Below are positions 26,356 to 53,300 of a stretch of 60,928 bases of DNA, piece after piece. The position numbers and the translations under genes were made by a program. A model generated the notes under the pieces. It searched no databases, was not told the origin of the DNA, and saw only the letters and a list, made by a program, of their open reading frames with translations. Position 1 is the stretch's first letter. Each line of letters starts with the position of its first letter. The stretch is from a virus (taxonomy: Duplodnaviria > Caudoviricetes), in the IMG/VR virus record IMGVR_UViG_3300032315_000554, positions 1 through 60,928 of that record; one strand, 5' to 3'.

Positions 26356-27564
26356 ATGTCGTATGATTGCATTCCCTTGGCGACGATCCAAAACTTCGCC
26401 GCTAAGGACGTTGACCGTATCATTGGTCAGATTGGCCGGGTTCTCGCCCGGAAGTCTCCTTACATTAACTCCATCGATGGTGGAACGCTACCTAACGTCT
26501 CTGACGTGGTTCGCTCTGTTGTCGAGGAAATGGCTGTTCCTGCGTCCTCGCTCGCGGCTCCTGTTTTCGTCAATGACACCACACTCTGTGGCGTTGGCGC
26601 CAACCCGGACCTCGTCGGCAGCACCGAGTACAGCTTCCAACTCCAAACCCTTCGCGGTGCTGGTCCCCGTGTCTGCGTCAAGCAGGCTCGCACGGCATTC
26701 AAGGGAAGCTATCTGCAGGCTCAGGTCTCTCTTGAGAAGACCATCCTGCAGATCATCAACGCTGACATCCGGTACCAGTACCTGATCCAGTCGGGCATCA
26801 AGTTTGTCGCCAACAGCACCCGTGCGTTCACACAGAACCTCACGGGCGACATGCAGGCGCTCAACACGAAGTTCGCGGCAGTCCTCCCGGATGCTCCGAT
26901 GAACTTCAAGACGCTCTACAAGATCGGCAGCTTCCTGCGCGAAGAGATGCTGGCTGAACCCTTCGCGACCCGTGACGGAGAATTCTTCCAAGTCTTGGCG
27001 AGCGCAGATCAGATCGAAAACTTCCGCAATGACGCTGATGTCAAAGAGGACTTGATCGGTCTGACCACTGGCTCCTTCCGCCTCGGCGAGGAGAGCATCG
27101 CTGGCTACCAGTTCATGGGCTACCGGGGCTTTGCTTTCGGCATCGACCAGCAGCCTCTCCGGGCGACTGGATTCGACGGAAGTAACAACCTTGTTCTGGT
27201 CAACCCGATCATCAGCCAGTCCGTGGACAACGGCTTCGCTCAGCGCCGTAACCCTGCTTGGGTTAGTGCTCCGTACGAGGTCATGTTCGTCATCGCTGGC
27301 GAAGCGTTCAAGCGCCTCGTCCCCGAGTCGTACACTGGTGAGGGAACCTTCAAGTTCGCTCCTCAGCTTGCGATGGGCGAACTGGAGTGGACCTACTTCC
27401 GCGACAACGACTGCAACCTGTACGGTGACTTTGGTCAGCACATCTACCAAATTCAACGTGCGATTCAGCCGATCCGTCCGCAGAACGTCTGCGCCATCGT
27501 CTACAAGCGTTGCCCGTTTGACGGTCTGCCTCTGGCTTGCTCGACCAGCACGACTGGTCTCTAG
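26356..27564 (+). CDS. Major capsid protein
   Basis: 402 aa with strong codon bias, own promoter, downstream hairpin and position after the scaffold. Confidence 0.8.
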   Translation: MSYDCIPLATIQNFAAKDVDRIIGQIGRVLARKSPYINSIDGGTLPNVSDVVRSVVEEMAVPASSLAAPVFVNDTTLCGVGANPDLVGSTEYSFQLQTLRGAGPRVCVKQARTAFKGSYLQAQVSLEKTILQIINADIRYQYLIQSGIKFVANSTRAFTQNLTGDMQALNTKFAAVLPDAPMNFKTLYKIGSFLREEMLAEPFATRDGEFFQVLASADQIENFRNDADVKEDLIGLTTGSFRLGEESIAGYQFMGYRGFAFGIDQQPLRATGFDGSNNLVLVNPIISQSVDNGFAQRRNPAWVSAPYEVMFVIAGEAFKRLVPESYTGEGTFKFAPQLAMGELEWTYFRDNDCNLYGDFGQHIYQIQRAIQPIRPQNVCAIVYKRCPFDGLPLACSTSTTGL

Positions 27565-30999: not shown

Positions 31000-31172
31000 A
31001 AAACATCCTCAGCGTTCTGCTTCAAAAACTAACCGAGAATTCCACTTGGCGCGGACTCATCCTTCTTAGCACCGCACTTGGACTCCGGTTAGAACCCGAG
31101 TTGCAGACGCAAATCATCTCCGCTGGCCTCGCCTTGGTCGGCGTCATCAACGTCATCCGCAAAGGAAAGTAA
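30996..31172 (+). CDS. Holin (58 aa, not in ORF track)
   Basis: MKNILSVLLQKLTENSTWRGLILLSTALGLRLEPELQTQIISAGLALVGVINVIRKGK; two hydrophobic helices and basic tail; coupled to the endolysin. Confidence 0.75.
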   Translation: MKNILSVLLQKLTENSTWRGLILLSTALGLRLEPELQTQIISAGLALVGVINVIRKGK

Positions 31173-31723
31173 TGGTTCCTCGCTCAAAGCCGAAACAGTC
31201 TAAGGACGCAACTGAGAAGTTGCTCCGAAGGGCTGGAGTCACTGAGAAGGTGGCTCTTGTCGGCGTTCGGGGATACTACAAAAACACTCTAGGCAAGCCC
31301 AACGAAAACGACATCGGGATATACGACGATGCTGTTTTCTTGGTCTCGCCAGAGGTGTATGCGGCGTTCAATGCAAACGTAGATCCATCAGTGCTGAAGC
31401 CGAATGTCGCGACACTGGTTCCGGGCGTCTACATGTACAAGAAAGGGAAGCATGGCATATCCCGTGGACCCGGATACCCGGCGCTCAGGCCAGCGACTGC
31501 TGGCGAAAGGCTTCCTGTTCGCAGGTGGAACGAGAAAACTAACGACTACTACTACGACACTGGAGTAGCCATAAACGTCCACAAAGGATCTCTAAGATCA
31601 ACCTCGTCTGATGGTTGTCAGACAATATACCCAAGCCAGTACGATGCGTTTATAAGTCTCGTCTACAGCGAGATGAAACGATTTTCCCAAAAACTAATCC
31701 CGTACCTTTTAGTAGAATATTAG
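31172..31723 (+). CDS. Endolysin candidate with YkuD/L,D-peptidase-like H..C motif
   Basis: VGVRGY, YDD and INVHKG....SSDGCQ. Confidence 0.75.
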   Translation: MVPRSKPKQSKDATEKLLRRAGVTEKVALVGVRGYYKNTLGKPNENDIGIYDDAVFLVSPEVYAAFNANVDPSVLKPNVATLVPGVYMYKKGKHGISRGPGYPALRPATAGERLPVRRWNEKTNDYYYDTGVAINVHKGSLRSTSSDGCQTIYPSQYDAFISLVYSEMKRFSQKLIPYLLVEY

Positions 31724-39392: not shown

Positions 39393-41522
39393 ATGAAATC
39401 CGATCAGATTAACTCTGGAAGACTTGTAAAGGTCAGCACTGGTTGGACTCAGGGCGTCAATAGTGTACGCAACCCGTGGGCGCTACCGGAGAACCAATTA
39501 AAGTGGGGAGTAAACGTCACTGTGCGCGGAGGAATTGCACAGACTCGACCGGGGTATTCCATGCGCCTATCTCTTCCTGCTGGAAATTTTCAAGGAGGCA
39601 TATTCTTTGCGAGCAACAAGCAGTTTAGCGCACCGATAAAAAACACGGTTGGTGGTAAACAAGTAATTTCCCCGGCAAAAATATTTACACCTGATGGCAA
39701 TGGAGTTGTGGCCTCAGAAATCCCGTACATCGTTTTTGCTGTGGATGGCATTGTTTACTACGCACCGTTTCCATTGTCGCAGCCAAAGAACTGGTCTGAC
39801 TACCAGCTTACAGGAATAGAGATGGATCCCAACGTCAGCCAGTGTGTGTTTGCTCTGGCTACGCAGTCCGCGAGCATTAGCTCTGGAGGTGATGCTACCG
39901 TTACGCCTGCACATCGTATGGTAATGATTCAGGACGGCGTTTCTGCGCCTTCTTATTGGGACGGCTCAAACACAACTGGAGTTCAGTCAGAAAACATTCC
40001 GGTCGGAACATGGATGGCTTACTCTGGCAATCGAATGTGGATAGCGGACAAGAACATTGTGCTGGCTTCTGACTTGGGCGACCCAACAAGTTGGAGGGAA
40101 AGAACAACTGGCGCCGGAAGAGGTGATTTTAGCTTTTCCAGACCAGTCACAGGCTTGGTCTCATACGTTGGTCAAAACACAGACACTCGCTTGATCGTAT
40201 TCACTGACAGGTCCACTTTCTCGTTGGCTTCAGGTGTGCTTGATCGTGAATCGTGGACGAGCACACAAAACTTTCAAAACACGTTATACCCAACCGTGGG
40301 ATGCATCGCCGGGAAGAGCATAGCTTTTCAAGCAGGTCAAATGTGGTGGTATTCTCAGGGAGGTCTTGTCGCTGCTGACGTTGCTGCAGCCTCGTATCTC
40401 TCGTCTCAGGTTCTCTACAAGGACATTGAGATGGCGCGGACAAAGCGTTTCATATCCGGCAACCAAGAAGCCATATGCGCCACATCTTTCGAGAACTATC
40501 TCCTCTACTCGGTCCCATACCTTGAAAATATTAATTCGGCTACGATGGTTTTGGACTATGCGGCTGCTTCAGAGTGGGGACAGTCCCGAAACCCGGCTTG
40601 GTGCGGCGTGTGGGTCGGAACAAGACCTATTGAGTGGGCTACTGGAACAGTAGACGGTCAGCCTAGATGCTTTCAGTTTTCCATCGACTATGCCGCTACC
40701 AACGATGGTTCATACAATCATTTGTGGGAATCATTCATGCCCGAGCGTGTGGACTCATATCTAAATATTAATGCAGACGGATCAACGACCTCTTTGTTCC
40801 AAAGGATATACGCTCAGATAGAAACAGCCATGCTTGGAGACGGCATGGACCTGAAGCAGTTTGTGTACGCAGAAATCGAGGGCACAGAGATTGGAGGAAC
40901 AGTTGACGTAAAGGTAAGCTATCGTGGAAGTAAGGGTTCTTACCAAGAAGTTTTACAAAAAAGAATTCTGTCTGTTACTGACAGGTATCAGTACGAGCAT
41001 TCACCGTTTGTCGATGAGATAGACAAACTTGGTTTTTTGAATACACAGTATCGGAGACTTGTGACCGAAAGCGCCACAAGAAAGCCTTCTTACGTTACTT
41101 GCGAAAGCCCAAACACCGCTGACATCGACAAGGCGTTTACAATTTTAATAGAATGGTGCGGAGAATTTGGCGTGGAAATTGTAAGACAATTTCAAGACCC
41201 GTGGGGTGAAAAATCTATTGGATCTCCAACATCTAACGAAACCATATCATGTGTTGTTGGGGAGTCTGGAGACAGTATATCAGTTGACCTGAAAGAAAGC
41301 CCGTACGACACCGGGATAGGTGATGCCAAATCTTGGTACGCAAAGGTATACAAGACCGTAAATGTGCCATGCAGCAACAGTCCCTCGTCTGTTTCTGCGA
41401 CAGCTTCGGCCACATATCTTTCATTTATTTCATACTCTCATGCCGAAGAAGAGGCTGGAGTGCTTGCTCTTCAAGCCGCCAATGCAGCGGCTCAGCAATA
41501 CAAAGCACGGAATCCCTGCTAA
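39393..41522 (+). CDS. Tail nozzle/tubular protein B-like (beta-propeller)
   Basis: GVN...PWAL.ENQ, YSGNRMW..SDLGDP and VGCIA..SI motifs; podovirus gene order. Confidence 0.7.
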   Translation: MKSDQINSGRLVKVSTGWTQGVNSVRNPWALPENQLKWGVNVTVRGGIAQTRPGYSMRLSLPAGNFQGGIFFASNKQFSAPIKNTVGGKQVISPAKIFTPDGNGVVASEIPYIVFAVDGIVYYAPFPLSQPKNWSDYQLTGIEMDPNVSQCVFALATQSASISSGGDATVTPAHRMVMIQDGVSAPSYWDGSNTTGVQSENIPVGTWMAYSGNRMWIADKNIVLASDLGDPTSWRERTTGAGRGDFSFSRPVTGLVSYVGQNTDTRLIVFTDRSTFSLASGVLDRESWTSTQNFQNTLYPTVGCIAGKSIAFQAGQMWWYSQGGLVAADVAAASYLSSQVLYKDIEMARTKRFISGNQEAICATSFENYLLYSVPYLENINSATMVLDYAAASEWGQSRNPAWCGVWVGTRPIEWATGTVDGQPRCFQFSIDYAATNDGSYNHLWESFMPERVDSYLNINADGSTTSLFQRIYAQIETAMLGDGMDLKQFVYAEIEGTEIGGTVDVKVSYRGSKGSYQEVLQKRILSVTDRYQYEHSPFVDEIDKLGFLNTQYRRLVTESATRKPSYVTCESPNTADIDKAFTILIEWCGEFGVEIVRQFQDPWGEKSIGSPTSNETISCVVGESGDSISVDLKESPYDTGIGDAKSWYAKVYKTVNVPCSNSPSSVSATASATYLSFISYSHAEEEAGVLALQAANAAAQQYKARNPC

Positions 41523-41523
41523 C

Positions 41524-41766
41524 ATGCCAACTATCTCACAGGTTTCTGTACCAGTTACAGAGTTTCCAAACAGGTTTATTAGCCCATTTGCTGATGATCC
41601 GATACCGCCGCTTTACTCTTCTATTCCTATACGGCTTGCGAATCAATCATGCTTACCTTGTGCAATTTGCGAAACAAGTCAGCAACGCGCAGCGATTATT
41701 CAGGAGCAAGCAAGAAAATTCTCTGGTTTCTCTGGTCAAAACGAAACATTTGTCGGAATAATATAA
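41524..41766 (+). CDS. Small protein with CxxCxxC (80 aa)
   Basis: ATG 41524 right after the nozzle stop. Confidence 0.7.
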   Translation: MPTISQVSVPVTEFPNRFISPFADDPIPPLYSSIPIRLANQSCLPCAICETSQQRAAIIQEQARKFSGFSGQNETFVGII

Positions 41767-41768
41767 AT

Positions 41769-42152
41769 ATGGACTCAAGTCGTATAGACTACCAATTTTT
41801 GGTACCCGGAACTCAAGCGTTTGAGGAGGTCAAGAGATTTGCCAAAGACTTCGACCACGAAATCGTCGAGAGTCCACACGTTTCATTGTGTGCTCACGTT
41901 AAAAACGGTCAATTGGTTGGGTATTCGGACCACGTTTTTGCTCCTGTCGTATACCCTGCATTTCACCCAAAATACAGTAGTCCGCGAGACGCTGTTCGAG
42001 TTATGAACGACTACAAGAGTCACGTTCAGTTCGCCAAGGGGATTGGCTATATCGGCGTACCCTTAGAGACAGACAGACCAACTTTTACAAACGAGGTGAT
42101 GACTCGATTAGGATTGACTAGAATGTACAGAGAGATTTACTGCATAACTTAA
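41769..42152 (+). CDS. GNAT-like acyltransferase (putative)
   Basis: 127 aa; KNGQLVGY beta-hairpin and NEVMTRLGL motif-B-like end; sits before the ejection genes. Confidence 0.5.
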   Translation: MDSSRIDYQFLVPGTQAFEEVKRFAKDFDHEIVESPHVSLCAHVKNGQLVGYSDHVFAPVVYPAFHPKYSSPRDAVRVMNDYKSHVQFAKGIGYIGVPLETDRPTFTNEVMTRLGLTRMYREIYCIT

Positions 42153-42166
42153 ACAGAAGGAACTAT

Positions 42167-43024
42167 ATGGGAGGACAAACAGTAAGCCCCGGAAAATACA
42201 TCTCCAAACCGGATAACACGGTGGAGACGATGACTCTTAATGCCAAGTTGGCTGCTGATAACTTGAATTTTCAGCTTGGAATGCTCGGTTTTGAGCAGCA
42301 AGCAAAGAGTCAAGAGAGGGCGCTAAAATTAGCAGCACAACTTGCCCCGAATCTTCAGCAATTCAACGCCGCGAAGACATCCGAAGAGGCGGCTGAGATG
42401 GGCATGGCAAACCTTTCTAGGTCCAGACAGTTTGAGCAGTTGGCTGATCCTGAGACTGCAAAAATGCGTAGGCAGATCGGCAAGCGTGTCGCGGACGCAA
42501 CTTCTTCAGAGGCGCTGGAGAAGTACATGAATGAGTTTGCAAAGCGCAAAGGCGTTACTGACCTCGATCAGACTGGAATTTCTCGGGACTCTACCATTGG
42601 TAGGTCTGCTATCTTTGACCAAGCAACACAGGCTGCTCGTCAATTCAATCTAGAAAATTTAGCCGCTCAGCAGGGGTATCTCGCGGCGACTCAGGCGCCA
42701 ACAGGCGGACTGGATCCGGGAGCACTCATGGAGGCAAAGCAGGCATCCGAGTCCGCAAACTTGGCAAACCTGACCGGGTGGCAGCAGAACATCATCAATG
42801 CCGCTCGGGGCATGCAGCTACAGTCTCCAATGTTTGTTCCTACCGCCGGATATCAAGACATTCTTGGACTGCAACAAGCTAACCAGCAAAACAGGCAGAA
42901 TTATCAGCAGGCAATGTATCAGGCGGCGGCTCAGAATGCCTCAAATCAAAACCAGATGACTGGTGCATACATTGGCGCTGGCGGCGCAGTTGCAGGCGCC
43001 GCTCTTGGCGCTGTAATCATCTGA
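42167..43024 (+). CDS. Internal virion/ejection protein (MGG N-terminus)
   Basis: Q/A-rich helical; C-terminal GxxxG hydrophobic segment GAGGAVAGAALGAVII. Confidence 0.75.
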   Translation: MGGQTVSPGKYISKPDNTVETMTLNAKLAADNLNFQLGMLGFEQQAKSQERALKLAAQLAPNLQQFNAAKTSEEAAEMGMANLSRSRQFEQLADPETAKMRRQIGKRVADATSSEALEKYMNEFAKRKGVTDLDQTGISRDSTIGRSAIFDQATQAARQFNLENLAAQQGYLAATQAPTGGLDPGALMEAKQASESANLANLTGWQQNIINAARGMQLQSPMFVPTAGYQDILGLQQANQQNRQNYQQAMYQAAAQNASNQNQMTGAYIGAGGAVAGAALGAVII

Positions 43025-43026
43025 CC

Positions 43027-43866
43027 ATGCAAAACCTCATAGATACAACGATAGAAAAAGCCATAAGTTGGCACAAACGCTGGCCGCGATCTGTTGTGCT
43101 TTGGTCTGGTGGAAAGGATTCCACTGCGCTGCTGCACCTTCTACGGTTTAGATGCAAGATAGACGTTCCGGTCATTCAGTACAGGGAGCCGAAGTTGCGC
43201 TGGCGTTACGCATACTCCGACAAATTAATCAAAGACTGGAATCTGGAGGTATACGACTATGCTCCGTCCAAGGTAGCCATTACTGATGGACCTGACGTAG
43301 AAACGGGCGAGCCTCGCTTCGACATGCTCAAGTACTACCAGTGGGGTTCTAAGTGCGTTGGGATGTCTTTGGGAACCGAGCGCCCGAAACCGGGTGAAGA
43401 CTTCTTGTGCGGCGTTGATGACTTTCTTTATCGTCCTACGGGCACGTTTAATTGGGTGTGGGGAGCCGTATATATTGGAACAAAATACTGCGACACTGAT
43501 TTGATCAAGGGTCACGTTCCTTTGGCTATGGACATTCGGTACAACGAAGGTTCTCCGGTTTCCTTGTATCCGATGCGAGACTGGTCAGATAAAGATATTT
43601 TTCAGTACCTAGAAGACAATGGTGTCGAGCCAGATCCAACCAGATACATCAAGGTGGATGGAAGGTGGATCAATAATCCTGACAAATCTCTTAACGCAGA
43701 CTTTTATCCAGTGTGCTTTAATTGCGTCGATAGGCACCAAGGAAGACATGTTTTCTGCCCAAAGCTAAACGCGACCATCAGCAACATATCGGATGCAGCG
43801 CCGTACGAGGATGTAGTCATCCCTGATCTTGGTTTTCGTCCGATAGTCTGGAACAAGGAGAAATAA
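43027..43866 (+). CDS. PAPS-reductase-family PP-loop protein
   Basis: LWSGGKDS PP-loop; YPMRDWSDKDIFQYL; C-terminal CFNC...CPK. Confidence 0.9.
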   Translation: MQNLIDTTIEKAISWHKRWPRSVVLWSGGKDSTALLHLLRFRCKIDVPVIQYREPKLRWRYAYSDKLIKDWNLEVYDYAPSKVAITDGPDVETGEPRFDMLKYYQWGSKCVGMSLGTERPKPGEDFLCGVDDFLYRPTGTFNWVWGAVYIGTKYCDTDLIKGHVPLAMDIRYNEGSPVSLYPMRDWSDKDIFQYLEDNGVEPDPTRYIKVDGRWINNPDKSLNADFYPVCFNCVDRHQGRHVFCPKLNATISNISDAAPYEDVVIPDLGFRPIVWNKEK

Positions 43867-43867
43867 T

Positions 43868-44296
43868 ATGGGAGGAGCAAATAAACAGAGCGGATCACCA
43901 ACTTCAGGCGCGATGCCCGAAGTTCGCACGGCAACGATTCCAACTCAACAAGATTGGAGAAATGAAATCTCCGCTCAGAGGGGCGAGCAAGACCGCGCAA
44001 ACATGGCTAAACTTTTTCTCGGGGCGTCTCAGGACATTTCCAAGCAATTTGGTCAAATGGGATCAACACAACCCAAGCCGCTTAACCAGTGGCGCGATGT
44101 GCAGAAGTACAGTCAGAATCCTTCGTCAAACAACTTGCAGTTCACGCCGCTTTCTCCTGTTGAAATCTACAATGATGAACGCTTTGCGGTTCAAAAAGGT
44201 TTGGTTTCTGGAGTTGGAAACCTAGCAAGTGGAATTCTTAGCGGACTTTCTTACCGTGGGAGCGGATCAGGATCCAATATTAACTACAAAGGATAG
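43868..44296 (+). CDS. Internal virion protein candidate (MGG N-terminus)
   Basis: G/S/Q-rich; amphipathic GLVSGVGNLASGILSGL. Confidence 0.7.
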   Translation: MGGANKQSGSPTSGAMPEVRTATIPTQQDWRNEISAQRGEQDRANMAKLFLGASQDISKQFGQMGSTQPKPLNQWRDVQKYSQNPSSNNLQFTPLSPVEIYNDERFAVQKGLVSGVGNLASGILSGLSYRGSGSGSNINYKG

Positions 44297-44416
44297 TGAA
44301 ATATTGCGACAACCTTGCAAATCTTCGGCTCGGCGAATTGCTGCGTAAATAATCACGACAAAACGCCGGACTTATTGTATAAACAAACCAACCAAAAAAA
44401 CTAGGAGGATAATAAT

Positions 44417-44980
44417 ATGGGAGGCAGAGGCGGCGGAAAATCTAAACCAGCACCAGCACCTGACAACAGTGCAATGATTGCATTGATTCAGTCGCAGATG
44501 GCACAACAGGCTGCACAATTTGAAGCGGCACAAACTGCAGCTAAAGAAGCTGAGGAACGTGCCCGTGTTGAGCAGGAAAAGGCTGCTTTAAGAGCAGAAA
44601 ATGTTGCCGCAAGCGAGAAGATGCAACAGAGCTTCACAAACGCTCAGTCCAATCTTGCTAATCTAGAAGCACGTCAACAGTTGGAAGATGCTCAGGCGCA
44701 AGAGACTGCCGCTCTGCAGTACGCCGCTACTGGCGCTGCTGCAACTGGTGGCGGATACGATATCAATGCTGCGCGTGAAGAGGCTTTGAAGAACCTTGGA
44801 GCGGCTTCTGGCACCCTTCCTAGCACGGCAATGAACCGTGTGGGCGCGGCTGCTGGACAAAATCCGGCAATGACTACTGCAGCCTCACAGCTTGCAAACA
44901 TGGGAGCAGGAGGAAGTTCTCAACGCCAAAATACTTTCACACTTCCACAAGCAAAAAATATAACATTCGGAGGATCATAA
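44417..44980 (+). CDS. Internal virion protein candidate (MGG start, FGGS end)
   Basis: A/Q-rich; SD GGAGG; paralog of the next gene. Confidence 0.8.
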   Translation: MGGRGGGKSKPAPAPDNSAMIALIQSQMAQQAAQFEAAQTAAKEAEERARVEQEKAALRAENVAASEKMQQSFTNAQSNLANLEARQQLEDAQAQETAALQYAATGAAATGGGYDINAAREEALKNLGAASGTLPSTAMNRVGAAAGQNPAMTTAASQLANMGAGGSSQRQNTFTLPQAKNITFGGS

Positions 44981-44981
44981 T

Positions 44982-45590
44982 ATGGGAGGCTCAAAGGGTA
45001 AAAATAATAAAGCGCAGCAGCAAGCAGCGCAACGTGCAGCACAACAAGCGGCTGCGCTAAGGGCACAACAAGCGGCGGCGGCGGCTCACGCTGCAGCTAT
45101 AGCTAGAGCACAACAGCAGGCCGCGCAAAATGCGCTTGCCGCTCAGCAGGCTGCAGATGCACAGGCTGCTTTGAACGCTCAAAACACTGGAGCGTATAAC
45201 GCTATGCAGGAGAGTTTTACAACAGCAACAGAAGGTGTGCTTCCTCGTCTTGCACAAGAGTCTAGGAGCGAAGACGTTGCTCGTCAGGAAATTCAAGATG
45301 CTCAATACACTGCTGCTGGTGGCGCGGCTACTGGTGGCGGAGTTGACCTTGGATCGATTCGTCAGCAGGCTTTGTCAAACCTTGGAGTTAGTGCTCCGCT
45401 TCAAATTGGCGGAGCCATTGCTGGTCCCGCGAGCACCAATAACAACCCTGCTGCGAATACTCCTACAGGAGCCGCTTCAGGCGACATGGGTGCGATGATT
45501 GCCGCCAACAAAATGGGTGGCGGAAGAAACACACCGGGCAACGTATTTCGACTTCCAAAAGCTCCGAATCTTGCATTTGGCGGATCGTAA
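44982..45590 (+). CDS. Internal virion protein candidate (MGG start, FGGS end)
   Basis: Shares QY.A.G.AATGGG.D...R..AL.NLG and N.F.LP.A.N..FGGS with 44417. Confidence 0.8.
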   Translation: MGGSKGKNNKAQQQAAQRAAQQAAALRAQQAAAAAHAAAIARAQQQAAQNALAAQQAADAQAALNAQNTGAYNAMQESFTTATEGVLPRLAQESRSEDVARQEIQDAQYTAAGGAATGGGVDLGSIRQQALSNLGVSAPLQIGGAIAGPASTNNNPAANTPTGAASGDMGAMIAANKMGGGRNTPGNVFRLPKAPNLAFGGS

Positions 45591-45602: not shown

Positions 45603-47369
45603 ATGGCTTACAAGACCGCTGGGTACCAATTCAGCCCTCGCATCAGCACCGGAGGCGCCGGGGCGCTGGCTGACATGCCGCGCATTCAGGAAGTTGTTGT
45701 TCCTGAAAGTGCTGGCCTTAGGTTCGCGGCTCTTCCTGCTCCAGTGGTTCTGCCAGATCAGAGCGGTCTTGTTGGTCAATCAATTGCTTCTGCCATCACC
45801 GACATTGGCAAGGGAGTGATCTCTGGTTACATGACTCGGCGCGAAGAGGATCTAGCTCTTGCAAAAGAAGAGCGTAATTGGAACCGCAAGATGGAGCTAG
45901 AGCTTCTAAAGCAAGAACGATACGAAGAAGCAGAAAAGAAGCGAGACGAGAGACTTAACAAAACAATTCAGTCAAGGCTCGATCTTGTTGGTGCAAGAAA
46001 GGCGGCAGAGGAAGAAGCAGAACTCGAAGAAGAGATTGATTTTCTCGACGATGAAGAAAACTTGAGCGACAGGGTGAGCGATGGAACGGAGCCGTCAGTC
46101 TATAAAGATGACGGTACTGTCGCCGTGGAGGACATGCCCAATGACGAGCCTACCAGAGATATTCCGATGGAAGGTGGCGCCGTAAGAGTTCCGACAAATC
46201 CTCTTATCCCTGACGAGGAATTGGAGACTGCAGATCTTCCGCCGCTCAGCCAAGTTGCTCCGTACGGATTTCAAAACATTGGTGCACTTCCCGGAGCACA
46301 ACCGGGCATGGCTGAGGCGGACATTTCCGCGATTCCTCCCGAGTATCTTATGGCTCAAGCTCAGGGCGTTCCCCCGGCGGCTCCCGTTGACGAGTTGCCG
46401 CTCAAAGACATTGGCCTGAGCTTGGAAGACATTGACGTTTCTTTTGTCACTCCCGAAATGGAGCGAGAGGTTCGCGAAGCCCGAGGCGGATATCGCCAAC
46501 AGCTTGCAAGCGCATTGCTTGAGCAGGCTGCAAGAGCACAGGGAGGTCAGCCTCTGGCTGAAATGGAACCTGTCGGTGAAAAACCCAAGGGTCTCCCCAA
46601 AGGATTTAAGCCGGGACCGTATCGCTCAGCAGAAAGAGCGTACGAGATGTCCAATATGCAGATGCCGGAAGGATTTGCTCCTCCTAAAGTGGATACACTC
46701 AAAGATAAAAAAGGGGGCGTGTACTTCATGGTCAACATGCCAGAGCGACTTACTCCAAAAGAAGAAAAGACCGCTGAAGGTGGCGGAGGAAAGACATTGA
46801 CCTCAACGGAAGCGAAGACCTTGGGTGACTTTGATTCGGTCGTATACACGCTTAATGTCATCAATGATAAACTTACCAAACTTGAGCAGCGTGGACCGAT
46901 TGTTGGTCGTGTTCGCGGGGCAAACCCCTATGATGTTGACGCTCAAGAAATTGAAAATCTTGTAACCAGTGTTGTTCCGGGATTGGCTCGCGGCGTGTTT
47001 GGCGAGGTGGGTGTCCTTACAGACACTGACGTGGCTAGGTACATGAAGTTGGTACCAAACATCAAAACATATCCAGCATTAGTTCTGAGAGAATTTAGGA
47101 ATCTCAGTGACAAAGTGATGATGTCAAAACTTTCAAAACTTAATGCACTTAGAGATTCAGGTTATGATGTTAGTGGATTTGCTGGTCAGATGAAGGCAGC
47201 AGAGCAGCGAATGGAAGAGACAACAGGAGTTCTAAACGAACAGGTTCGTTCGCTCGCAACGCAATTGATGTCGATGAAGAAGGGCACACCAGAATACGAA
47301 GCGTCTTGGAAGCAGTTGCTAGAACTTAGAAAACGCCAACGCGCAGCAGAAGAAAAAGAATCTCAATAG
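45603..47369 (+). CDS. Ejection/DNA transfer protein (588 aa)
   Basis: Coiled coil, acidic linker and C-terminal ARGVFGEVGVLTDTD motif; precedes the giant protein. Confidence 0.7.
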   Translation: MAYKTAGYQFSPRISTGGAGALADMPRIQEVVVPESAGLRFAALPAPVVLPDQSGLVGQSIASAITDIGKGVISGYMTRREEDLALAKEERNWNRKMELELLKQERYEEAEKKRDERLNKTIQSRLDLVGARKAAEEEAELEEEIDFLDDEENLSDRVSDGTEPSVYKDDGTVAVEDMPNDEPTRDIPMEGGAVRVPTNPLIPDEELETADLPPLSQVAPYGFQNIGALPGAQPGMAEADISAIPPEYLMAQAQGVPPAAPVDELPLKDIGLSLEDIDVSFVTPEMEREVREARGGYRQQLASALLEQAARAQGGQPLAEMEPVGEKPKGLPKGFKPGPYRSAERAYEMSNMQMPEGFAPPKVDTLKDKKGGVYFMVNMPERLTPKEEKTAEGGGGKTLTSTEAKTLGDFDSVVYTLNVINDKLTKLEQRGPIVGRVRGANPYDVDAQEIENLVTSVVPGLARGVFGEVGVLTDTDVARYMKLVPNIKTYPALVLREFRNLSDKVMMSKLSKLNALRDSGYDVSGFAGQMKAAEQRMEETTGVLNEQVRSLATQLMSMKKGTPEYEASWKQLLELRKRQRAAEEKESQ

Positions 47370-47378
47370 TCCCGGCGT

Positions 47379-50300
47379 ATGACCATCGAAGATATTATGG
47401 CGGAAGCCGATTCCGCTATCGATTCCGAGGAGGGCAAGGAACCGGAAGAGGAACAGCAAGAGACTCCAGAGTCCTTAATGGCTAAGGCGGACGAAGAAAT
47501 AGACAAAGAGCCTGAAGATCCTTCAAGACTTTTGGCGCCGGAACCCATAAGCGAGCTAGATGCTCTTAAACCTAAAGCACCAACTCCTGAGCCGCAAAAA
47601 GTAGAGGCTCCTCCAGAAGATGCCGTGGACATCTTGCTGCAGATGACTCAGGGACAGACGCCTGATCAATACGACGAGAAGGTTTTTCAATGGAGGGACA
47701 CGCTCACTCCTCAACAGTTTGCAAAACTGTCCAAGCAAGATGAAGCATTTCCGCTGACAGACACCCAAGAAAGAGCGGCTTACGATTACCTTCGCAAGAG
47801 TGATGATCCGTTCAAGATTCCGCGCAACTTTGAAGATTGGTACGGCATCGCCGAGTACACTGCCGGGATGGTTCCGATGGTCGCGGAACAAGTTAAAGAC
47901 TCTGCCGTAGGGTTTGTTAAGGGTGGATATAAGTTCGGCAAGGGACTTGTCGATTACGCCACAGCCGAGAATTTTGCTTGGAAGGACGCTTACGAGACGC
48001 TTCCTGACGATGCTAAGGAGCGTGTCCGCGAGCAACTAGGCTCAATCCCCGGAGGATTTTTCAATCCCAAGGCTCTTCCTGACGCAGAGATCAGCAAAAT
48101 TGTATTCTCTGAATTGCCGCAACAAGAGCAGAAGAAATTTGAGGAGCAGTCTGCGGCAGGAACAGAAGCCGGGCGTACTGCCATGTTCAGTGCTCTTGAG
48201 CCACTGGTAGGTCTTCCGATCAGCATGGCCGAAACAGCCACAAAGGTGGCTACTGGTGGCATCTCAGCTTGGGACAGAGTCACAGAGGCTACTGGCATTC
48301 GCTCTTACGAGGACTCGTTTGAAAACTGGAGGAATCGCAGACTGTTCGACGGGTCAATGCAGCGTTGGAACGCCGAAAGGCCGACATCGTACGCGAAATT
48401 TTTGGAAATCATCTCCCCGGCTATTGTCTCAATTGCAAAGTTAGACGGTCCAACCGTCGAAGACTACATGCGCGAGGAGGGTCTGACACGCGAGCAGGCC
48501 GAGCTTGCGCGTGACTACGATGCCGAGCAACGGACGCTGGCGTCAATCGATCAGGTGCAAGAGGAAAGGATTCCTGACATCGATGAAGATATCAGGATTT
48601 TTGGCGAGTTTGCGCTTCCCGCCGGGTTCGGTCTCGACCAATTCGGTTACGCGATGAACTTGATGCGTGTCGGATCGTGGATGACACCGAAGCTGTACGC
48701 AAAGCTACGACTCGCTGGAAAAACGCCGGAAGAGATCAACCAGTATTACACCGCAAGAACAAATGCCGCCAAAGAGTCCGCTAAGAAGCAACTTGAAAGA
48801 CGCTCGAAGCCAACGGTCACCGGGACGGTTGCTGGAAAAACAGCCGATCAGATCGAGCGCATTCAAGCGGCTATGGATCAGAGCGCATTTTGGAAACGCA
48901 TTCGCCAAGCATCCCCGTATGTCGCTGGCGCTGCTGTCGGCTACGGCGTCACCGAGGATCCACTGGCGTTCCTTTACGGATCAATTGGTGGTCGCCTCGC
49001 CACTAGCTTCCCTCGTTTCATAAGCGACTGGGACGAAGCTCGACGCATTTCTGCAGGTGGACGGCAGGGAACTTTTGCGACACTAGCTGAGGTTAGACAG
49101 GACAGGGCGAACGCACGTCGAGGCAGACCGTTTGACCCTGAGGCTAAACCAGAGATCAAGCTGAAGGGTAGCGTGAGCGAGCGCATTCAGGACTATGGCG
49201 GAGAGAAGATTGACAATATCTTAGGCAATATCGGCGATTATGTCCGTATTGGCGTCGAGCCTACGCTGATTGGAATCGGTGTCGGCGCCATCAACTCGTC
49301 TGACGATGAAGAGTTGGCTTCCATGATCGGCAACGGCTTGGTCTTCAGCTTGGGAGGACGAGGGATTCAGCAGATACGAAACAAGTTATTCGGGGGCTAC
49401 GATCCCGTCATCGAGGGCAGGAGACTGCGTCAGGACATGGTTGACTTTCAAAAGCTATACCGTGACTCATCCCCGGAAAGCCGTAAACAGATCGACCGTC
49501 TTTCAGACTGGAACACGGTTGTTGACGCCAAAAAGCGTGACTTAGAGGCTGCACAAAAAAGGCTCCAAGATGCTGAGGCTGCTGCCCAAAAAGCCAGAGA
49601 TGGGGATCCCACAAAATTCAGGACCGAGGCGGATCGAATTTCAGAGGTAGGTTCCGCACTTGAAAAAGTTTCAGTTGCTCGCAAAGGGGTTGAGTTGCGT
49701 CAGGCGACTCTGGACCGTGTTAGCCGGGCAAACTTACAGACTCGAAACGAGTACAGCAGGCTATGGCTTAGGAATTTGGCTCGGGTCAACGTACTTGGAA
49801 ACGGAACGCTCCGCGAGGGCATGAATAACGTAGGCATCAATGTCCTCTCGTCTGCCGAGATCTACAAGCTGATGCGCCGGAACCCCGAGAACGCATCTCT
49901 CTCCAACGAGAGACTGTGGCAGTCTGCTACGCAATCGGGGTTTTATAGCTCCCCTGACGGCACAACGGTATTCAAGCCGGGTTCGCCGCTGAACGAGCAG
50001 GGAGGAAAGATGATCTTCGACTCGAAGCGCCCATCTGTGGTGGTCAATGCGGACTACATTCGCCAGACCGCTGGAAAGACAGGACAGCTTCCCATCTTTG
50101 CGTTGAATCACGAATTTGGACACCACCTCAAAAATGTCCCCGAGTATGCAGAGCTAATTAAGGATTCCGAGAGCATGCTGTTCGCTCAGGAGGTCAAAGA
50201 CTTGAGCGGCAATACGGTTGCTGTGACCCCCGGAAAGTATTCGCAATCGGATTTGGTGGACATGTACTGGAACAGGTATCTCGCCGGGTACACCAGAGCG

Positions 50301-53300
50301 GAAAAAACGCAGTTCGCTCAGATGAACGGGCTGCTCGACGAGACTACCGGACAACTCAAGCCAGAGGAGACAGCGGCTTACATGCGAAACGAGGTCATGG
50401 CGGACCTCACTGCAGAAAGCGTTTCTAGGTTTATCGATCCTCAGAAAGACGGTGCCGTCAAAGACATCTACGACCGGGCTTTGCTCAAGTTTAGGACCAA
50501 GAGACTTGCTAATCTTGTGGACAAGTTACGCAGGCTCGGCGGCACCGGGGACGTGATCACCGACAACACGGGCGCGGGGTTGTCTCCCGAAGTAGTACAG
50601 ACGGCTACGGACGCCTTGAAGGCATACGATGCGCTGAAGAATCAGGTCAGTCCCGCTGTGCCTCAGCCTGAGCGTCCAAAGATTAGCAAGGCACAGATGA
50701 TGGGTGACCGTGCGGTGCAGGCCAGATACGGCTCGGACAGTCCTCTCTTCAGTACAAGCGTCAAGGCTCAGGTATTCGATGCAAGCGGCAAGCCCATTGG
50801 CACCAGCATTCCTATCGATATGAAAGACCCGGCGCTTTCGGAAGGCGTATGGGAACGTACTGAGACGGGCGTTAAACAAATCGGTGGATACGGTCGCTTG
50901 AGTCGACAAATTGATCTTACCGGGGTTCCCGTTGGTTCACGCATTGTAATATCGAACCAACTTGACTATCAGCCAGACGGCGTAACGCCAATTATACTGA
51001 ATCCGAAACAAGCGAAAAAACGTGGCAAGGATAGGTTTCAAATTGTTCGCTCAGTACTCGACAACACACCTGACTACGGAGCGCCGAATCGATTCCAGCC
51101 AGTTGCTCCGGGTTCAGACACTTATCGCGGGACGTTCACACCTCTGCAGATGAAGGCACTGATGGACATACCCGAGTCAGTGGTTCCAAAGTCGATCAAA
51201 GAGAAGATCATTGCCATAAACACTGCTCTAGCTCGCAACGATGGAACCCGAATGATCGTGGACTATGCCGCTGTGATGACTGATAGCGGCAAGTATCAGG
51301 CTTTCTCCCCAAAGGTTTACGATGTCGTTCCTATCGGGATGATGTTCTCGAAGGACGGCAACTTCCTCGCCACTACGATCTCGGTTACACGGTTATTCGA
51401 CAAGCTCAACGCATGGTCTGACCGCATGCCTGCTCGTCTCGATTTCTGGAACGGATCGAAAGACAAGTTTTGGGATGACTTCTCGAAGAAGTACCTAGCC
51501 AACTGGCAAAAGGGCATTGAGGGGAGCGGATACACCAAAAAGGGCGAGCTTGTTGAGGGATCTACACCGCTAGACGCTGACGCAGAAATCGCAAAACAGA
51601 AGGCGAATATATTCAACGACTTCCTAAACCTGTTCGACAAAGAAACGGAAGGATTGAACCCTGATAGAACCGCGACCCCTCGACGCAAGGGAGATCCTAG
51701 AGACAAAAACATTGATCGAACGATCATGTCGTTGCGTATCGATCACATTGCCGAGATCATCGAGAACCCGATGGGCAAGCTGCCGATTGTATACGGGTAT
51801 GCGAAGCAAAACTTTTTACCTAAGAGTCCAGAGCAAAAAAATCGCAGCAAGAAACCGTCTGAATCAGACCTTGCGTATTTAAAAGCAATTGAATCTGGTG
51901 ACATTGATTCAGTCGAACCAGTCTTAAAAAATTTAGAGGATAGGGCGCAGAGTTTAATCAATTCTCTTGGAAGTCCAAAAGAAAGCGAAAAACGTGGCGA
52001 CTGGTATTCTGCTAATAGCGTCCTGCAGTGGGTGAATAGTGTAAGAAGTGGCAAAAAGCCTTCTAGATCCATTTCTTTTGAGCGTGGACAATCTAAATTA
52101 GTTCCAGAAAGCACAGATAGATTTCTTGAAAGGATTTCCGATAATTACTCAGGTATAAAGCTGCCATCAGATGCAGAAATTGCTTTAAGTAAAGCTGAAC
52201 AAATTTCAGGTACTGACATCCGCTATCTTCCTCGTAAGAAAATCGAAGGCGAAGAAATGCCGTTCAAGGTTGTCACTCAAAACCGTGACCCTGAAATGCA
52301 GGCAGCGGCACAGCGTTTGATTCGCGGAGAGATTGACGCTGCAGAGTACCAAGCTCTTGTTCGAGACAGGTCTCCGTACGAGGATCTTGATGATGTTCCC
52401 GAGCCACAATCTGTCGATCAGATCAAAGTGACGATGGGCGGCAGGGAAGAAAAGCCCAGTGCTCGCTCCGCAAAAGTTGGAGTCGCAAAGGCTGCAGGAT
52501 TAAAGCAGGGAGACTTGGCCGAGTCGCGCATCGACATCAGGGCATACTTGGACAAGGGAGAACACGTCAATGTGTTGCATCAGCCAACTTCCAAGGAGAT
52601 TGGTGGCAGTGCGTCTGGAGTTATTTCGTACGAACCAACAATTCATATGAAAGACGTGAAGTTCATGGTGAATCCAACAACGTCTTTGGAGATCGCTGCT
52701 GGAAGATCTAAGTCAACCATTGCACGAATCAACGGCAAGTGGCAGGACACGTCTCCAGAGGTTGCATTTGAGACGGCTAACGAGAAGTTCAATGATCCTG
52801 AATGGGTGCAGTTGGGGATGAACCCTACTCGCCAATCGAACTTCTACATCCGCTCTACCGGGGAACCAGTTAAGTCAGCAGACGAGATCATTCAAATCGG
52901 CAAGTTTGTTCTGGCGAAGAACGCGAAGAAGGTGACGCCGGAAGAGATGCCCGAGCGCACGATGACCGATTACGGCATGCAGTTCTTGCCGCGCCCGAAG
53001 AGGGCTGAGGAGGGCGAGCGAAAGACCCCGGTGCTGTCTGGCGTCGAGCCTCCCGTGCGGTTTGTCGGACCTCAGGGAGGTGCGCTGGAGGGCATCACGG
53101 TCGAGTACCAACCCGAAGCGAAGACGCTGGAAGGCATCAGCTTCCTGCCTCGTCCGAAGACTGACCGATACAAGTTTGCTTTCACGGTAGCCAGCGACCG
53201 CATCAAGCTGGTTGACGATCTGATCAAAGCGAAAGACTGGCAGGGCATTCGCGACCTGAATCAAGCGACCGTGCGTCACGCAATGTCTGACCTTCGCGGA

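Follow-up and report, generated by a model that had tools for sequence, protein, structure and literature searches.

The analysed window is the complete 60.9-kb genome of an uncultured tailed phage for which no cultured relatives were found, and 82 ORFs were called in it with a heuristic caller. The genes listed in Table 1 would constitute one coupled late gene string. From gene order, composition and a single weak PHROG match (p709 to phrog_511, 'internal virion protein', E 3.2e-5), we infer that this region would be an internal-virion (ejection-type) protein module. Orthologues of p709 were found in 80 viral contigs with 65–93% identity, and a homologue with 42% identity is present in a distant lineage (L176/L177). 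The 80-aa ORF that follows has orthologues of 81–85 aa at the same position in relatives, starting with MPSI or MPNI. p588 matched no family in Pfam or PHROG, and the giant protein gave weak local matches only (PF25735, 27.8 bits; PF18495; phrog_586), with 37% identity across 1578 aa to the relative G004. The spacing of 1–2 nt described for the PP-loop gene in an earlier, sequence-only reading of this DNA was borne out by the measured coordinates (43024 to 43027, 2 nt; 43866 to 43868, 1 nt), and e187 and e202 are likewise separated by 1 nt (44980 to 44982). Internal or ejection proteins of podoviruses include T7 gp14–gp16 and P22 gp7/gp20/gp16. The module resembles these in its position after the tail genes and in the succession of small coiled-coil or membrane-active proteins and very large ones, but no similarity to them was detected in Pfam and PHROG searches.

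Table 1. Features of the putative internal-virion protein module.
Feature	Coordinates	Strand	Description	Basis
p709	39393..41522	+	Tail or internal-virion protein, 709 aa; anchor gene upstream of the module	
80-aa ORF	41524..41766	+	Small conserved ORF, MPTISQVSVPVTEF..., between p709 and the GNAT gene	Read from the 41362-41766 frame
g127	41769..42152	+	Minimal GNAT-fold protein, 127 aa	AF2, Foldseek, VIA-align
e285	42167..43024	+	First MGG protein (MGGQ), 285 aa; Q/N-rich middle, C-terminal glycine-zipper tail ...GAGGAVAGAALGAVII	
PP-loop gene	43027..43866	+	PP-loop ATP-pyrophosphatase, PAPS-reductase superfamily, 279 aa	PF01507, phrog_424, AF2
e142	43868..44296	+	Second MGG protein (MGGA), 142 aa; Gly-rich C-terminal segment	
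Gap	44297..44416	.	120 nt	Relative L002 has a CxxCxxCC gene at the matching position
e187	44417..44980	+	Third MGG protein (MGGR), 187 aa; A/Q-rich coiled-coil type; C-terminal tail ...FTLPQAKNITFGGS	
e202	44982..45590	+	Fourth MGG protein (MGGS), 202 aa; e187 paralogue; C-terminal tail ...FRLPKAPNLAFGGS	
p588	45603..47369	+	588 aa, MAYKTAGYQF..., after the MGG genes	Orthologues in relatives
Giant protein	47379..56297	+	2972 aa, last of the module	

The genes at 42167, 43868, 44417 and 44982 all begin with ATGGGAGG (Met-Gly-Gly), and each has its own AGGA/GGAGG Shine-Dalgarno site 5–9 nt upstream, which confirmed the four starts noticed before. At the DNA level, one of the starts is ctatATGGGAGG and the other three are taatATGGGAGG. 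Glycine occupies position 2 in 6 of the 82 window ORFs, and MGG starts were found in 4 of the 82, every one within the module block, while about 0.4 would be expected by chance genome-wide (Gly is 7.3% of residues); two further in-frame ATGGGNGG sites (25508 and 52434) are internal to longer ORFs and are not starts. In 86 related contigs, all from one phage lineage, within which orthologues and paralogues cannot be counted as independent, MGG starts were present in 173 of 210 distinct non-enzyme module proteins and in 51 of 52 distinct N-termini of e285 orthologues. M1, G2 and G3 are invariant in the alignment of e285 (A7) and residues past G3 vary freely; the orthologues of e142 also begin with MGG, e.g., that of L002 at 46% identity. 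Thus, the MGG cluster of putative virion proteins is real and strongly conserved, and Gly2 and Gly3 were kept in the homologues, a point on which the earlier proposal had been made to depend.

The codons used for Gly2 (GGA 42%, GGT 39%, GGC 19%) vary much like the background (43/25/20), which suggests that selection acts at the protein level. At Gly3, GGA accounts for 80% of codons versus 43% in the background and GGG is never used, and this bias may reflect a nucleotide-level constraint near the start codon. It is known that methionine aminopeptidase removes the initiator Met when position 2 is Gly, and after this removal the module proteins would begin with Gly-Gly, a terminus both small and flexible. 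These termini are best read as a lineage signature of virion proteins and could be a structural determinant for virion packing or exit. An even chance of being correct is given to the explanation in which MGG is a structural signature of virion proteins at the protein level, the GNAT-fold protein is its constant companion and the PP-loop enzyme is an optional mobile accessory. A structural role gives no reason for the retention of exactly two glycines.

The opposite ends of several module proteins are conserved as well. In the alignment of the e187 family (A8), M1, G3, G185 and G186 are invariant and G2 is found in at least 90%, and a C-terminal [FYL]GGx tail occurs in 80 of 132 complete non-e285 module proteins. 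In the e187 family, the conserved ...L-x-F-G-G-x tail would act similarly to the Gly-Gly N-terminus. We know of no description of a conserved MGG N-terminus and FGGx C-terminus for podovirus ejection proteins, and nothing on such termini was found in literature searches at the level of listings.

The predicted structure of g127 (AF2, pLDDT 86) matched GNATs when compared with the PDB by Foldseek (E from 7e-5), and VIA-align covered 115–124 of its 127 residues with Z scores of 9.5–10.9 and an rmsd of 2.5–3.5 Å. No sequence match was obtained in Pfam, NCBIfam or the PDB sequences, although its language-model neighbours include viral clusters with PF00583. The previous designation as GNAT-like therefore holds for the fold, but not for a sequence family. 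The start codon of g127 was set by aligning 23 homologues. The protein falls into a family of its own, made up of 92 cluster representatives with lengths of about 115–140 aa. It shares a predicted fold of one small domain with RimI/RimL, Naa50/Naa80 and SpeG, but is shorter than the matched enzymes (127 aa versus 147–176 aa) and has no recognisable acetyl-CoA loop motif. This motif is Q/R-x-x-G-x-G/A in GNATs, whereas the β4–α3 loop of g127 reads H-P-x-x-x-x-P-R-D. The invariant residues (Y62-P67 and V97-P98) cluster on the predicted strands β4 and β5, where the active sites of GNATs are located.

If the termini are modified, g127 would be the only credible writer, and it may acylate them. It could be an N-terminal acyl- or acetyltransferase for the exposed Gly-Gly α-amine of four to six module proteins, neutralising charge or attaching a lipid with which the proteins would insert into membranes as the DNA enters, i.e., the earlier proposal minus the PP-loop enzyme. 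In the synteny survey proposed with it, g127 immediately preceded e285, the first MGG gene, in all 69 related contigs covering this spot. Its placement and the location of its invariant residues would fit such an enzyme. In their substrates, N-terminal acetyltransferases recognise chiefly the initial residues, and conservation confined to the first three residues of otherwise divergent proteins is consistent with recognition of this kind. Small amino acids prevail at residue 4 (S 69, G 29, A 16 of 166). The N-terminal acetyltransferase-type enzymes Naa50, RimI, RimL, Naa80 and Ard1 are among the tied top structural matches, but polyamine and aminoglycoside acetyltransferases tie with them. The missing sequence match to any GNAT family and the divergent loop also argue against this role, and no phage precedent was found in literature searches at the level of listings. 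Moreover, the perfect co-occurrence comes from a single lineage, where it fits an enzymatic link and common descent equally well. In the distant lineage L176/L177, a g127 homologue with 29% identity is kept behind the p709 homologue, and the next three proteins, with good Shine-Dalgarno sites, begin with MDTT, MGDD and MSGL. The suggested link between the GNAT and N-terminal glycine is weakened by this distant lineage, and a role of g127 in acylating the module proteins is considered unlikely.

A comparison with N-myristoylated capsid and entry proteins of animal viruses shows the same succession of Met and Gly in virion proteins thought to act on membranes at entry, here with a GNAT-fold enzyme nearby. 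Eukaryotic N-myristoyltransferase, an enzyme of about 400 aa, consists of two GNAT domains, whereas g127 has one in 127 aa. Its substrates preferably carry Ser/Thr at position 6, which is not conserved in the MGG proteins.

The assignment of the enzyme encoded at 43027 to the PAPS-reductase family was upheld: PF01507 was matched above its cut-off (26.2 versus 22.5 bits), phrog_424 was matched at E 4.3e-10, and SGGKDS lies at residues 27–32 and C230-x-x-C233...C244 towards the C-terminus as stated before. Together with C128, these cysteines make up four that are invariant in the alignment. The predicted structure (AF2, pLDDT 85) was closest to the PAPS domain of FAD synthase, CysD, TtuA and APS reductase (VIA Z 13.8–15.6), and PAPS reductases, GMP synthetase and LarE are also among the closest folds; Z was 11.1–14.7 for TtuA/NcsA types and 13.8–14.7 for TtuA itself. 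The enzyme shares PP-loop fold, Pfam membership and SGGKDS with CysH, CysD and eukaryotic FAD synthetase, but differs from these enzymes in carrying an additional insert rich in beta structure and a C-terminal tail rich in Cys. A CysH of sulfate assimilation is unlikely, since the CysH motif ECG[ILV]H is not present, the NCBIfam CysH model scored 14.6 bits (cut-off 154; the CysD score was also far under its cut-off) and no APS kinase (PF01583) was found in the genome. This agrees with the earlier suggestion that the enzyme may not act in sulfur metabolism; the accompanying statement that no other sulfate-assimilation gene was recognised holds for APS kinase, the gene that the search covered. 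The substrate is probably not sulfate, and the enzyme would use ATP to adenylate its substrate at a Cys4 metal site.

Of the lineage's 64 evaluable contigs, 61 carry both g127 and the PP-loop gene, and the two lie in one translationally coupled block with the spacing of 1–2 nt. Both features would fit joint modification of the MGG proteins by the two enzymes, e.g., adenylation-assisted N-acylation, as the sequence-only reading had suggested. However, the two genes vary independently in their distribution. The PP-loop gene is missing from four genomes that are complete or 97% complete (G001, G002, G006 and G007) and that keep the GNAT and the MGG genes with unchanged starts. Conversely, the complete phage G005 carries the PP-loop gene without a g127 homologue, next to proteins beginning with MAMNMS and MPYAPT, and in L164 it follows a protein beginning with MAKKKRK, again without a GNAT. 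This distribution already contradicts a two-enzyme system, the probability of which is considered close to negligible, and the proposed partnership of the PP-loop enzyme was not sustained. Only two coding-strand ORFs are shared between the window and G005, the PP-loop gene (74%) and 31172-31723 (63%), while 72 ORFs are shared with G004 of the same lineage; the enzyme of the window is closer to its counterpart in group-B locus L007 (74% identity) than to the one in L014 of its own lineage (68%). These comparisons indicate that the PP-loop gene has moved horizontally, and it would be an optional accessory rather than part of the MGG system.

In relatives, the ORF adjoining the PP-loop gene encodes a protein of 91–101 aa that belongs to PF03692 (34.7–38.1 bits, cut-off 23; E 2e-9 to 3e-8), the YkgJ-type zinc- or iron-chelating domain also carried by the flagellin lysine methylase FliB. 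Of 52 evaluable contigs, 48 carried this CxxCxxCC gene, and the PP-loop enzyme would normally travel with such a small metal or Fe-S protein. The window genome has no PF03692 match anywhere, and a tblastn search of 43800-44500 with three CxxCxxCC proteins yielded noise only (E ≥ 0.19); the gap 44297..44416 contains no promoter or terminator signal above shuffles and no Rfam match. All conserved residues of the window enzyme are kept although the partner is missing. The enzyme resembles the [4Fe-4S] sulfurtransferases TtuA/NcsA in its fold, several invariant cysteines and the small companion of its relatives, but its cysteine pattern and the CxxCxxCC companion differ from TtuA/TtuB, and no match to TtuA/NcsA was found at the sequence level.

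Within the same late operon, placed there for expression timing only, the PP-loop enzyme might be an auxiliary enzyme for a nucleotide, nucleic acid or small metabolite, e.g., in thiolation or adenylyl transfer; this is somewhat unlikely, yet a tentative possibility. To our knowledge, none of the enzymes with the closest folds modifies a protein, the four invariant cysteines and the CxxCxxCC partner suit an Fe-S or redox enzyme, and horizontal mobility and dispensability are typical for auxiliary genes. However, DNA-modification and defence-family models gave no match except QueC (E 0.002), and no other pathway gene was found when PF03692 and APS kinase were looked for. In addition, the gene occupies the same slot in unrelated phages, after a glycine-zipper protein and ahead of the giant protein, which is not expected of a free-standing auxiliary gene.

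The recurrence of the PP-loop gene inside the same module in unrelated phages argues for some connection with the module. The glycine-zipper tail of e285 is common to the proteins encoded upstream of the PP-loop gene in unrelated phages. Among 108 loci from two unrelated phage lineages and L164, the upstream ORF mostly stops 2–6 nt ahead of the PP-loop ATG, and all 43 distinct tails end purely in small or hydrophobic residues. In relatives lacking the PP-loop gene, the C-terminus of the e285 orthologue was polar or charged in 8 of 8 distinct cases (GGGKFK, YFGGR, GGAKFK, NASPED, KGAVPK, PRAQYA, PERTS and GGNLG). The PP-loop enzyme, joined by the CxxCxxCC protein in genomes that have one, might thus act on or with this extreme C-terminal tail, e.g., through adenylation of the terminal carboxylate in preparation for amidation, thiocarboxylation or ligation, but such a role is distinctly unlikely. 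Other PP-loop enzymes adenylate carboxylates, and the top folds include TtuA, an enzyme that binds TtuB at its Gly-Gly C-terminus, but we know of no protein substrate in the PAPS-reductase branch. Deletion of the enzyme gene may simply have changed the adjacent 3' end, the enzyme is dispensable in complete genomes, and L155 retains the zipper yet adds about 50 residues. The e285 proteins of L036, which has the enzyme, and L034, which lacks it, are about 97% identical outside the last ~20 residues; the two differ almost only in these residues and the enzyme gene, which suggests that tail and enzyme move as a unit.

The window spans an entire virus record (60,928 bases) that has direct terminal repeats and carries essentially all genes on the plus strand. 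Exactly four of the 82 ORFs of a heuristic gene call begin with Met-Gly-Gly (MGG), whereas about 0.4 would be expected from the glycine frequency. These are e285, e142, e187 and its paralogue e202 (see table), all of them placed between the 127-aa ORF 41769 and the giant 2972-aa protein gene (47379-56297). The sequence-only reading had pointed out these starts as well as the tight spacing around the PP-loop gene (ORF 43027-43866), and both observations were confirmed: the PP-loop gene is flanked by 2 nt and 1 nt, and the start context of the four MGG ORFs is (c/t)(t/a)atATGGGAGG. The genes are referred to here as a putative ejection module, a label drawn from gene order and composition together with a single weak PHROG match, that of the 709-aa protein p709. 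No promoter, terminator or Rfam element stood out in the block.

Coordinates of features in the window and in related contigs
Feature	Coordinates	Strand	Remark
MGG-start ORF e285	42167-43024	+	own Shine-Dalgarno upstream
MGG-start ORF e142	43868-44296	+	own Shine-Dalgarno upstream
MGG-start ORF e187	44417-44980	+	own Shine-Dalgarno upstream
MGG-start ORF e202	44982-45590	+	own Shine-Dalgarno upstream
CxxCxxCC ORF	L001:6861-7133		PF03692
CxxCxxCC ORF	L002:4376-4675		PF03692
CxxCxxCC ORF	L007:6819-7106		PF03692
SET-domain protein	L007:3352-3750		PF00856; GC-rich group B
SET-domain protein	L020:3448-3846		PF00856; GC-rich group B
SET-domain protein	L006:3788-4183		PF00856; GC-rich group B

Among GenBank phages, no relative of the window was found by DNA or by four proteins (queries: region DNA, PP-loop protein, the 402-aa ORF 26356-27561 and p709). 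The 402-aa ORF, for which no annotation matched, is 86% identical in the uncultured relative G004. Uncultured relatives were retrieved via the PP-loop protein (27 loci), via p709 (101 found, 80 kept) and via a DNA pattern of the junction (52 stretches). Relatives of 61-63 kb with a p709 that is 56-93% identical were termed group A; phages of about 42 kb with a GC content of 0.58-0.62, which have almost nothing else in common with the window, were termed group B. The clade of the window is uncultured but widespread, public viromes containing over 100 of its contigs. A literature search covering titles and abstract openings returned nothing on this gene arrangement.

Conservation of the N-termini was determined in group A across 86 distinct contigs (the window among them), leaving out 14 group-B loci, 4 second loci of counted contigs and re-fetched pieces. 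Non-enzyme proteins were counted from the GNAT-fold ORF to the first protein of at least 450 aa. An MGG start was found in 173 of 210 distinct proteins, one had MG followed by a residue other than glycine and 36 started otherwise; these counts come from a single lineage with orthologues and paralogues included, and they point to strong conservation, yet not to independent events. Several of the 36 other starts were miscalled starts or truncated calls of a CxxCxxCC protein. The N-termini of the e285 orthologues were MGG in 51 of 52 distinct cases and MGS in one, and M1, G2 and G3 were the sole invariant N-terminal columns of the e285 alignment. The expectation that homologues retain Gly2 and Gly3 was thus borne out, with the exception of one distant lineage (L176/L177). 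One sub-lineage has its e285 orthologue as two separate ORFs (L140:2917-3823, L155:1735-2782, L161:5819-6866), a piece of 117-124 aa with an MGG start and one of 176-230 aa starting MANED or MDGYT.

Judged from codon use, selection on MGG appears to act mainly at the protein level, since the Gly2 codons are used near background (GGA 42%, GGT 39%, GGC 19%; background 43/25/20/12). At codon 3, GGA was used in 80% of cases compared to 43% in the background, an additional nucleotide-level bias, and GGG never occurred at codons 2 or 3 of the 166 distinct group-A MGG ORFs. Residue 4 was mostly small (S 69, G 29 and A 16 of 166). A nucleotide signal in ATGGGAGG, i.e., a Shine-Dalgarno-like GGAGG after the start, was rejected as the main cause because codon 2 is GGT or GGC in 58% of the starts, which have genuine Shine-Dalgarno sites ahead of them.

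A second signature, absent from the sequence-only reading, was found at the C-terminus. The tail F-x-L-P-x-x-x-x-L-x-[FYL]-G-G-x, followed directly by the stop codon, is shared by the e187 family and was carried by 80 of the 132 complete module proteins other than e285. In the window it ends e187 (FTLPQAKNITFGGS) and e202 (FRLPKAPNLAFGGS), and examples from other contigs are L029:9781-10846 and L067:14228-15870. It also occurs on a non-MGG paralogue (MSIVDF..., 228-257 aa). The GG codons of this FGGx tail often serve as Shine-Dalgarno site for the gene that follows, and the tail is kept where they do not (e202: GGCGGA). An RF2-like +1 frameshift joining ...FGGx to MGG... at TAA-N-ATG junctions was rejected since the last sense codon is variable.

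With roughly even confidence, the Gly-Gly N-termini, which Met removal would expose, and the FGGx C-termini are read as structural signatures that mark the internal virion proteins of this lineage, with the GNAT gene as a constant neighbor and the PP-loop gene as an optional mobile accessory, here minus its CxxCxxCC partner. The channel that podovirus-type phages build across the host envelope from capsid-stored proteins is poorly understood. A testable handle is offered by 4-6 putative virion proteins per genome that are constant only in the first three and often the last four residues, with a dedicated small GNAT-fold enzyme invariably adjacent. If the termini are unmodified, the Gly-Gly ends would represent a new sorting or threading signal.

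ORF 41769 had been called GNAT-like, which holds at the level of the fold and not for a curated sequence-family match. The ORF had no match in Pfam (0 families at E <= 1), PHROG, NCBIfam, PADLOC or the PDB sequences, PF00583 gave nothing at E <= 1 against the whole window genome and a PDB profile search with the ORF revealed no GNAT. The AF2 model (23 homologues) had a pLDDT of 86.1 and a pTM of 0.77. Foldseek against the PDB returned 40 matches at E <= 0.001, and the matches listed were GNATs such as GCN5/PCAF and SpeG. By VIA-align, Z scores of 9.5-10.9 and rmsd values of 2.5-3.5 A were obtained over 115-124 of 127 residues, with SpeG, VipF, Naa50, RimI, Naa80 and RimL among the tied top matches. 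The BFVD matches were viral acetyltransferases, and in the protein atlas the ORF fell to viral clusters of about 126-128 aa with PF00583 on 47-67% of the members. The modeled structure thus has the GNAT fold, which is characterized by a mixed beta-sheet with a beta4/beta5 splay and by flanking helices.

In GNATs, the loop after beta4 binds the acetyl-CoA pyrophosphate through the motif Q/R-x-x-G-x-G/A, from which many members deviate. The loop after the predicted beta4 of ORF 41769 is H66-P-K-Y-S-S-P-R-D74, with H66, P67, P72 and D74 invariant and no G-x-G. Unlike N-myristoyltransferase, a single chain of about 400 aa with two GNAT domains in tandem, the 127-aa protein consists of one domain. 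The ORF belongs to a distinct family of small GNATs, for which an exhaustive profile search yielded 92 cluster representatives of 115-140 aa with the conserved blocks F-A-x-S-F-D-H, G-Y-x-Q, P-A-x-H-P...P-R-D and K-L-G-F...E-L-Y.

The GNAT gene lies directly upstream of e285 in all 69 group-A contigs that cover the spot. This constant adjacency would fit an enzyme acting on the Gly-Gly termini, namely a phage N-terminal acyltransferase that caps the alpha-amines of internal virion proteins after Met removal, and so would the fact that the first residues alone are conserved in the MGG proteins, as N-terminal acetyltransferases read the first residues of their substrates. A sub-alignment search of viral and metagenome contigs, however, revealed at least one further GNAT lineage (L176/L177), in which the gene occupies the same place and the downstream proteins start MDTT, MGDD and MSGL. 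L176 and L177 are the same phage type, with p709 42% and the GNAT 29% identical and no PP-loop gene; the proteins after the GNAT have good Shine-Dalgarno sites and no FGGx tail. Three single distant proteins of the GNAT family, used as queries, returned no viral contig. N-terminal acylation by the GNAT is considered improbable, and it is the most interesting live alternative to the structural reading. If true, it would be the bacteriophage counterpart of the N-terminal acylation of animal-virus entry proteins. This reading can be extended to the mobile PP-loop/CxxCxxCC cassette, which would activate the C-terminal carboxylate of the glycine-zipper tail protein, so that ejection proteins inserting into membranes would have their charge neutralized at both ends of the chain. 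If the termini are modified, this would be, to our knowledge, the first system dedicated to modifying the N-termini of phage virion proteins.

The slot that the GNAT occupies in group A, just ahead of the first module protein, is taken in group B by a SET-domain protein of 131-132 aa (PF00856, 42-52 bits; see table), and the next protein then starts MAMNMS. Other group-B loci have a 116-aa protein in this position, followed by a protein starting MGGGS (L026) or MGSKS (L012). Compared with the GNAT, this 116-aa protein had an hhalign probability of 0.1-0.2, and it matched nothing in PDB or Pfam. That small folds known for modifying proteins (GNAT, SET) recur at one slot is suggestive and does not show a target.

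The enzyme encoded by ORF 43027 scored 26.2 bits against PF01507 (cut-off 22.5, E 9.2e-6) and matched phrog_424 and phrog_2302. Its 213 homologues lie on contigs of phage size, with at least 58% identity throughout the 120 matches listed, and most carry a precomputed PF01507 label. The AF2 model (pLDDT 85) aligned by VIA-align over 150-162 residues, with Z scores of 15.6 (8rom), 14.9 (1zun), 14.7 (5b4e) and 14.2 (4bwv). Fold matches comprised the PAPS domain of FAD synthase, CysD, TtuA, APS/PAPS reductases, GMP synthetase and LarE (Z 11-15.6), and the model has a PP-loop ATP-pyrophosphatase fold. SGGKDS and Cys128, Cys230, Cys233 and Cys244 did not vary among 32 family members, nor among the 7 loci inspected. 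The fold resembles that of TtuA/NcsA-type Fe-S PP-loop sulfurtransferases (Z 11.1-14.7), in which Cys residues ligate a [4Fe-4S] cluster beside the PP-loop; for ORF 43027, four invariant cysteines were identified in the sequence. In CysH, the C-terminal catalytic Cys sits in an ECG[IL]H-type motif. ECG[ILV]H was absent from all 7 family members checked, the CysH model NF002537 scored 14.6 bits (cut-off 154), the CysD models aligned with residues 20-76 alone (NF003587, 29.6 bits vs. 195; TIGR02039, 25.5 vs. 396.6) and no APS kinase was found in the window genome. The proposal that the enzyme does not act as CysH in sulfur assimilation is upheld by these results. Among the PADLOC models, which include PP-loop proteins linked to DNA phosphorothioation or defense (DndC, SspD, BREX type), only QueC was matched, and weakly (E 0.002, 16.3 bits), none of the aligned stretches reaching the threshold by itself. 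ORF 43027 is a PP-loop enzyme of a separate branch that probably binds metal or Fe-S.

The distribution of the PP-loop gene contradicts the proposal that it forms, with the GNAT, one system modifying the MGG proteins. Three of 64 evaluable contigs (L029, L030 and L034) lack the gene, and a profile search of whole records found none in G001 (100% complete), G002 (97%), G006 (100%) and G007 (100%), all of which keep the GNAT and the MGG-start genes. The e285 proteins of L036, with the enzyme, and L034, without it, differ in their last ~20 residues; up to there they are about 97% identical, and MGG is untouched. Conversely, the complete group-B phage G005 carries the enzyme without a GNAT homologue, and its module proteins start MAMNMSNSGGGG, MPYAPT and MANPLL. 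In L164, the enzyme (52% identical) and a CxxCxxCC ORF follow a protein starting MAKKKRK. The PP-loop enzyme is thus not tied to the MGG proteins, and the lack of support for a two-enzyme system spares effort on the wrong experiment. L164, a phage region resembling group B, comes from a contig of a Verrucomicrobiota MAG that is labeled Chthoniobacter flavus and may be wrongly binned; it is the sole cellular-genome match of the enzyme above 40% identity and a possible hint to a Verrucomicrobiota host.

By six-frame BLASTP, the window and G005 share three matched ORFs, two of them on the coding strand (PP-loop gene, 74%; 31172-31723, 63%), compared to 72 ORFs with group-A G004. The window enzyme is 74% identical to group B vs. 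68% to group-A L014. This identity pattern indicates that the PP-loop gene has moved between unrelated phages. Its place is equivalent in groups A and B, after a Q/N-rich protein with a glycine-zipper tail and before a giant protein.

The ORF upstream of the PP-loop gene ends in a hydrophobic glycine-zipper tail, made up of small or hydrophobic residues only, in 43 of 43 distinct tails (108 loci that include the 5' end of the enzyme gene, from groups A and B and L164; window region 42950-43027), and its stop mostly lies 2-6 nt before the PP-loop ATG. In enzyme-less relatives, the end of the orthologue was polar or charged in 8 of 8 distinct cases; in L155, the zipper is kept with about 50 residues added. 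This covariation could mean that tail and enzyme form one functional, mobile unit, which we regard as quite unlikely, or that deletions of the enzyme gene altered the adjacent 3' end.

In relatives, a 91-101-aa CxxCxxCC ORF (PF03692, 34.7-38.1 bits, cut-off 23) follows directly after or overlaps the 3' end of the PP-loop gene, or in some lies one gene further. Together they represent a mobile enzyme pair that recurs behind the glycine-zipper tail protein in unrelated phages. Of the 52 group-A contigs that could be evaluated, 48 had the partner, while the window, L031, L036 and L037 lacked it. PF03692 had no match anywhere in the window, and the 120-nt gap 44297-44416, where L002 has its CxxCxxCC gene, holds no remnant of it. 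The closeness of the window enzyme to its counterpart in the partner-bearing L001 (85% identity), compared to 68-70% identity with the enzymes of L031, L036 and L037, indicates that the partner gene appears to have disappeared on two or more occasions. Even so, all conserved residues are kept in the window enzyme. In group B (L007:6001-7074, L003, L020, L024), the PP-loop frame stays open for about 80 codons beyond the end of the window protein and covers the entire CxxCxxCC ORF, which is read in a different frame (L007; see table); this may reflect overlapping genes or a GC-rich shadow frame.

The 2972-aa protein could be assigned to no family; only weak local matches were obtained, to PF25735 (residues 1748-1839; mycobacteriophage L5 gp82-like), to the VbhA antitoxin motif (residues 1637-1664) and to phrog_586 and phrog_3170. 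ORF 31172-31723 (183 aa, phrog_3000), besides the PP-loop gene the sole gene common to the window and the unrelated G005, looks like a second horizontally exchanged gene. It had no match in Pfam or PDB, and its stretch ...H-K-G-S...S-D-G-C-Q... presumably resembles L,D-transpeptidase-type catalytic motifs.
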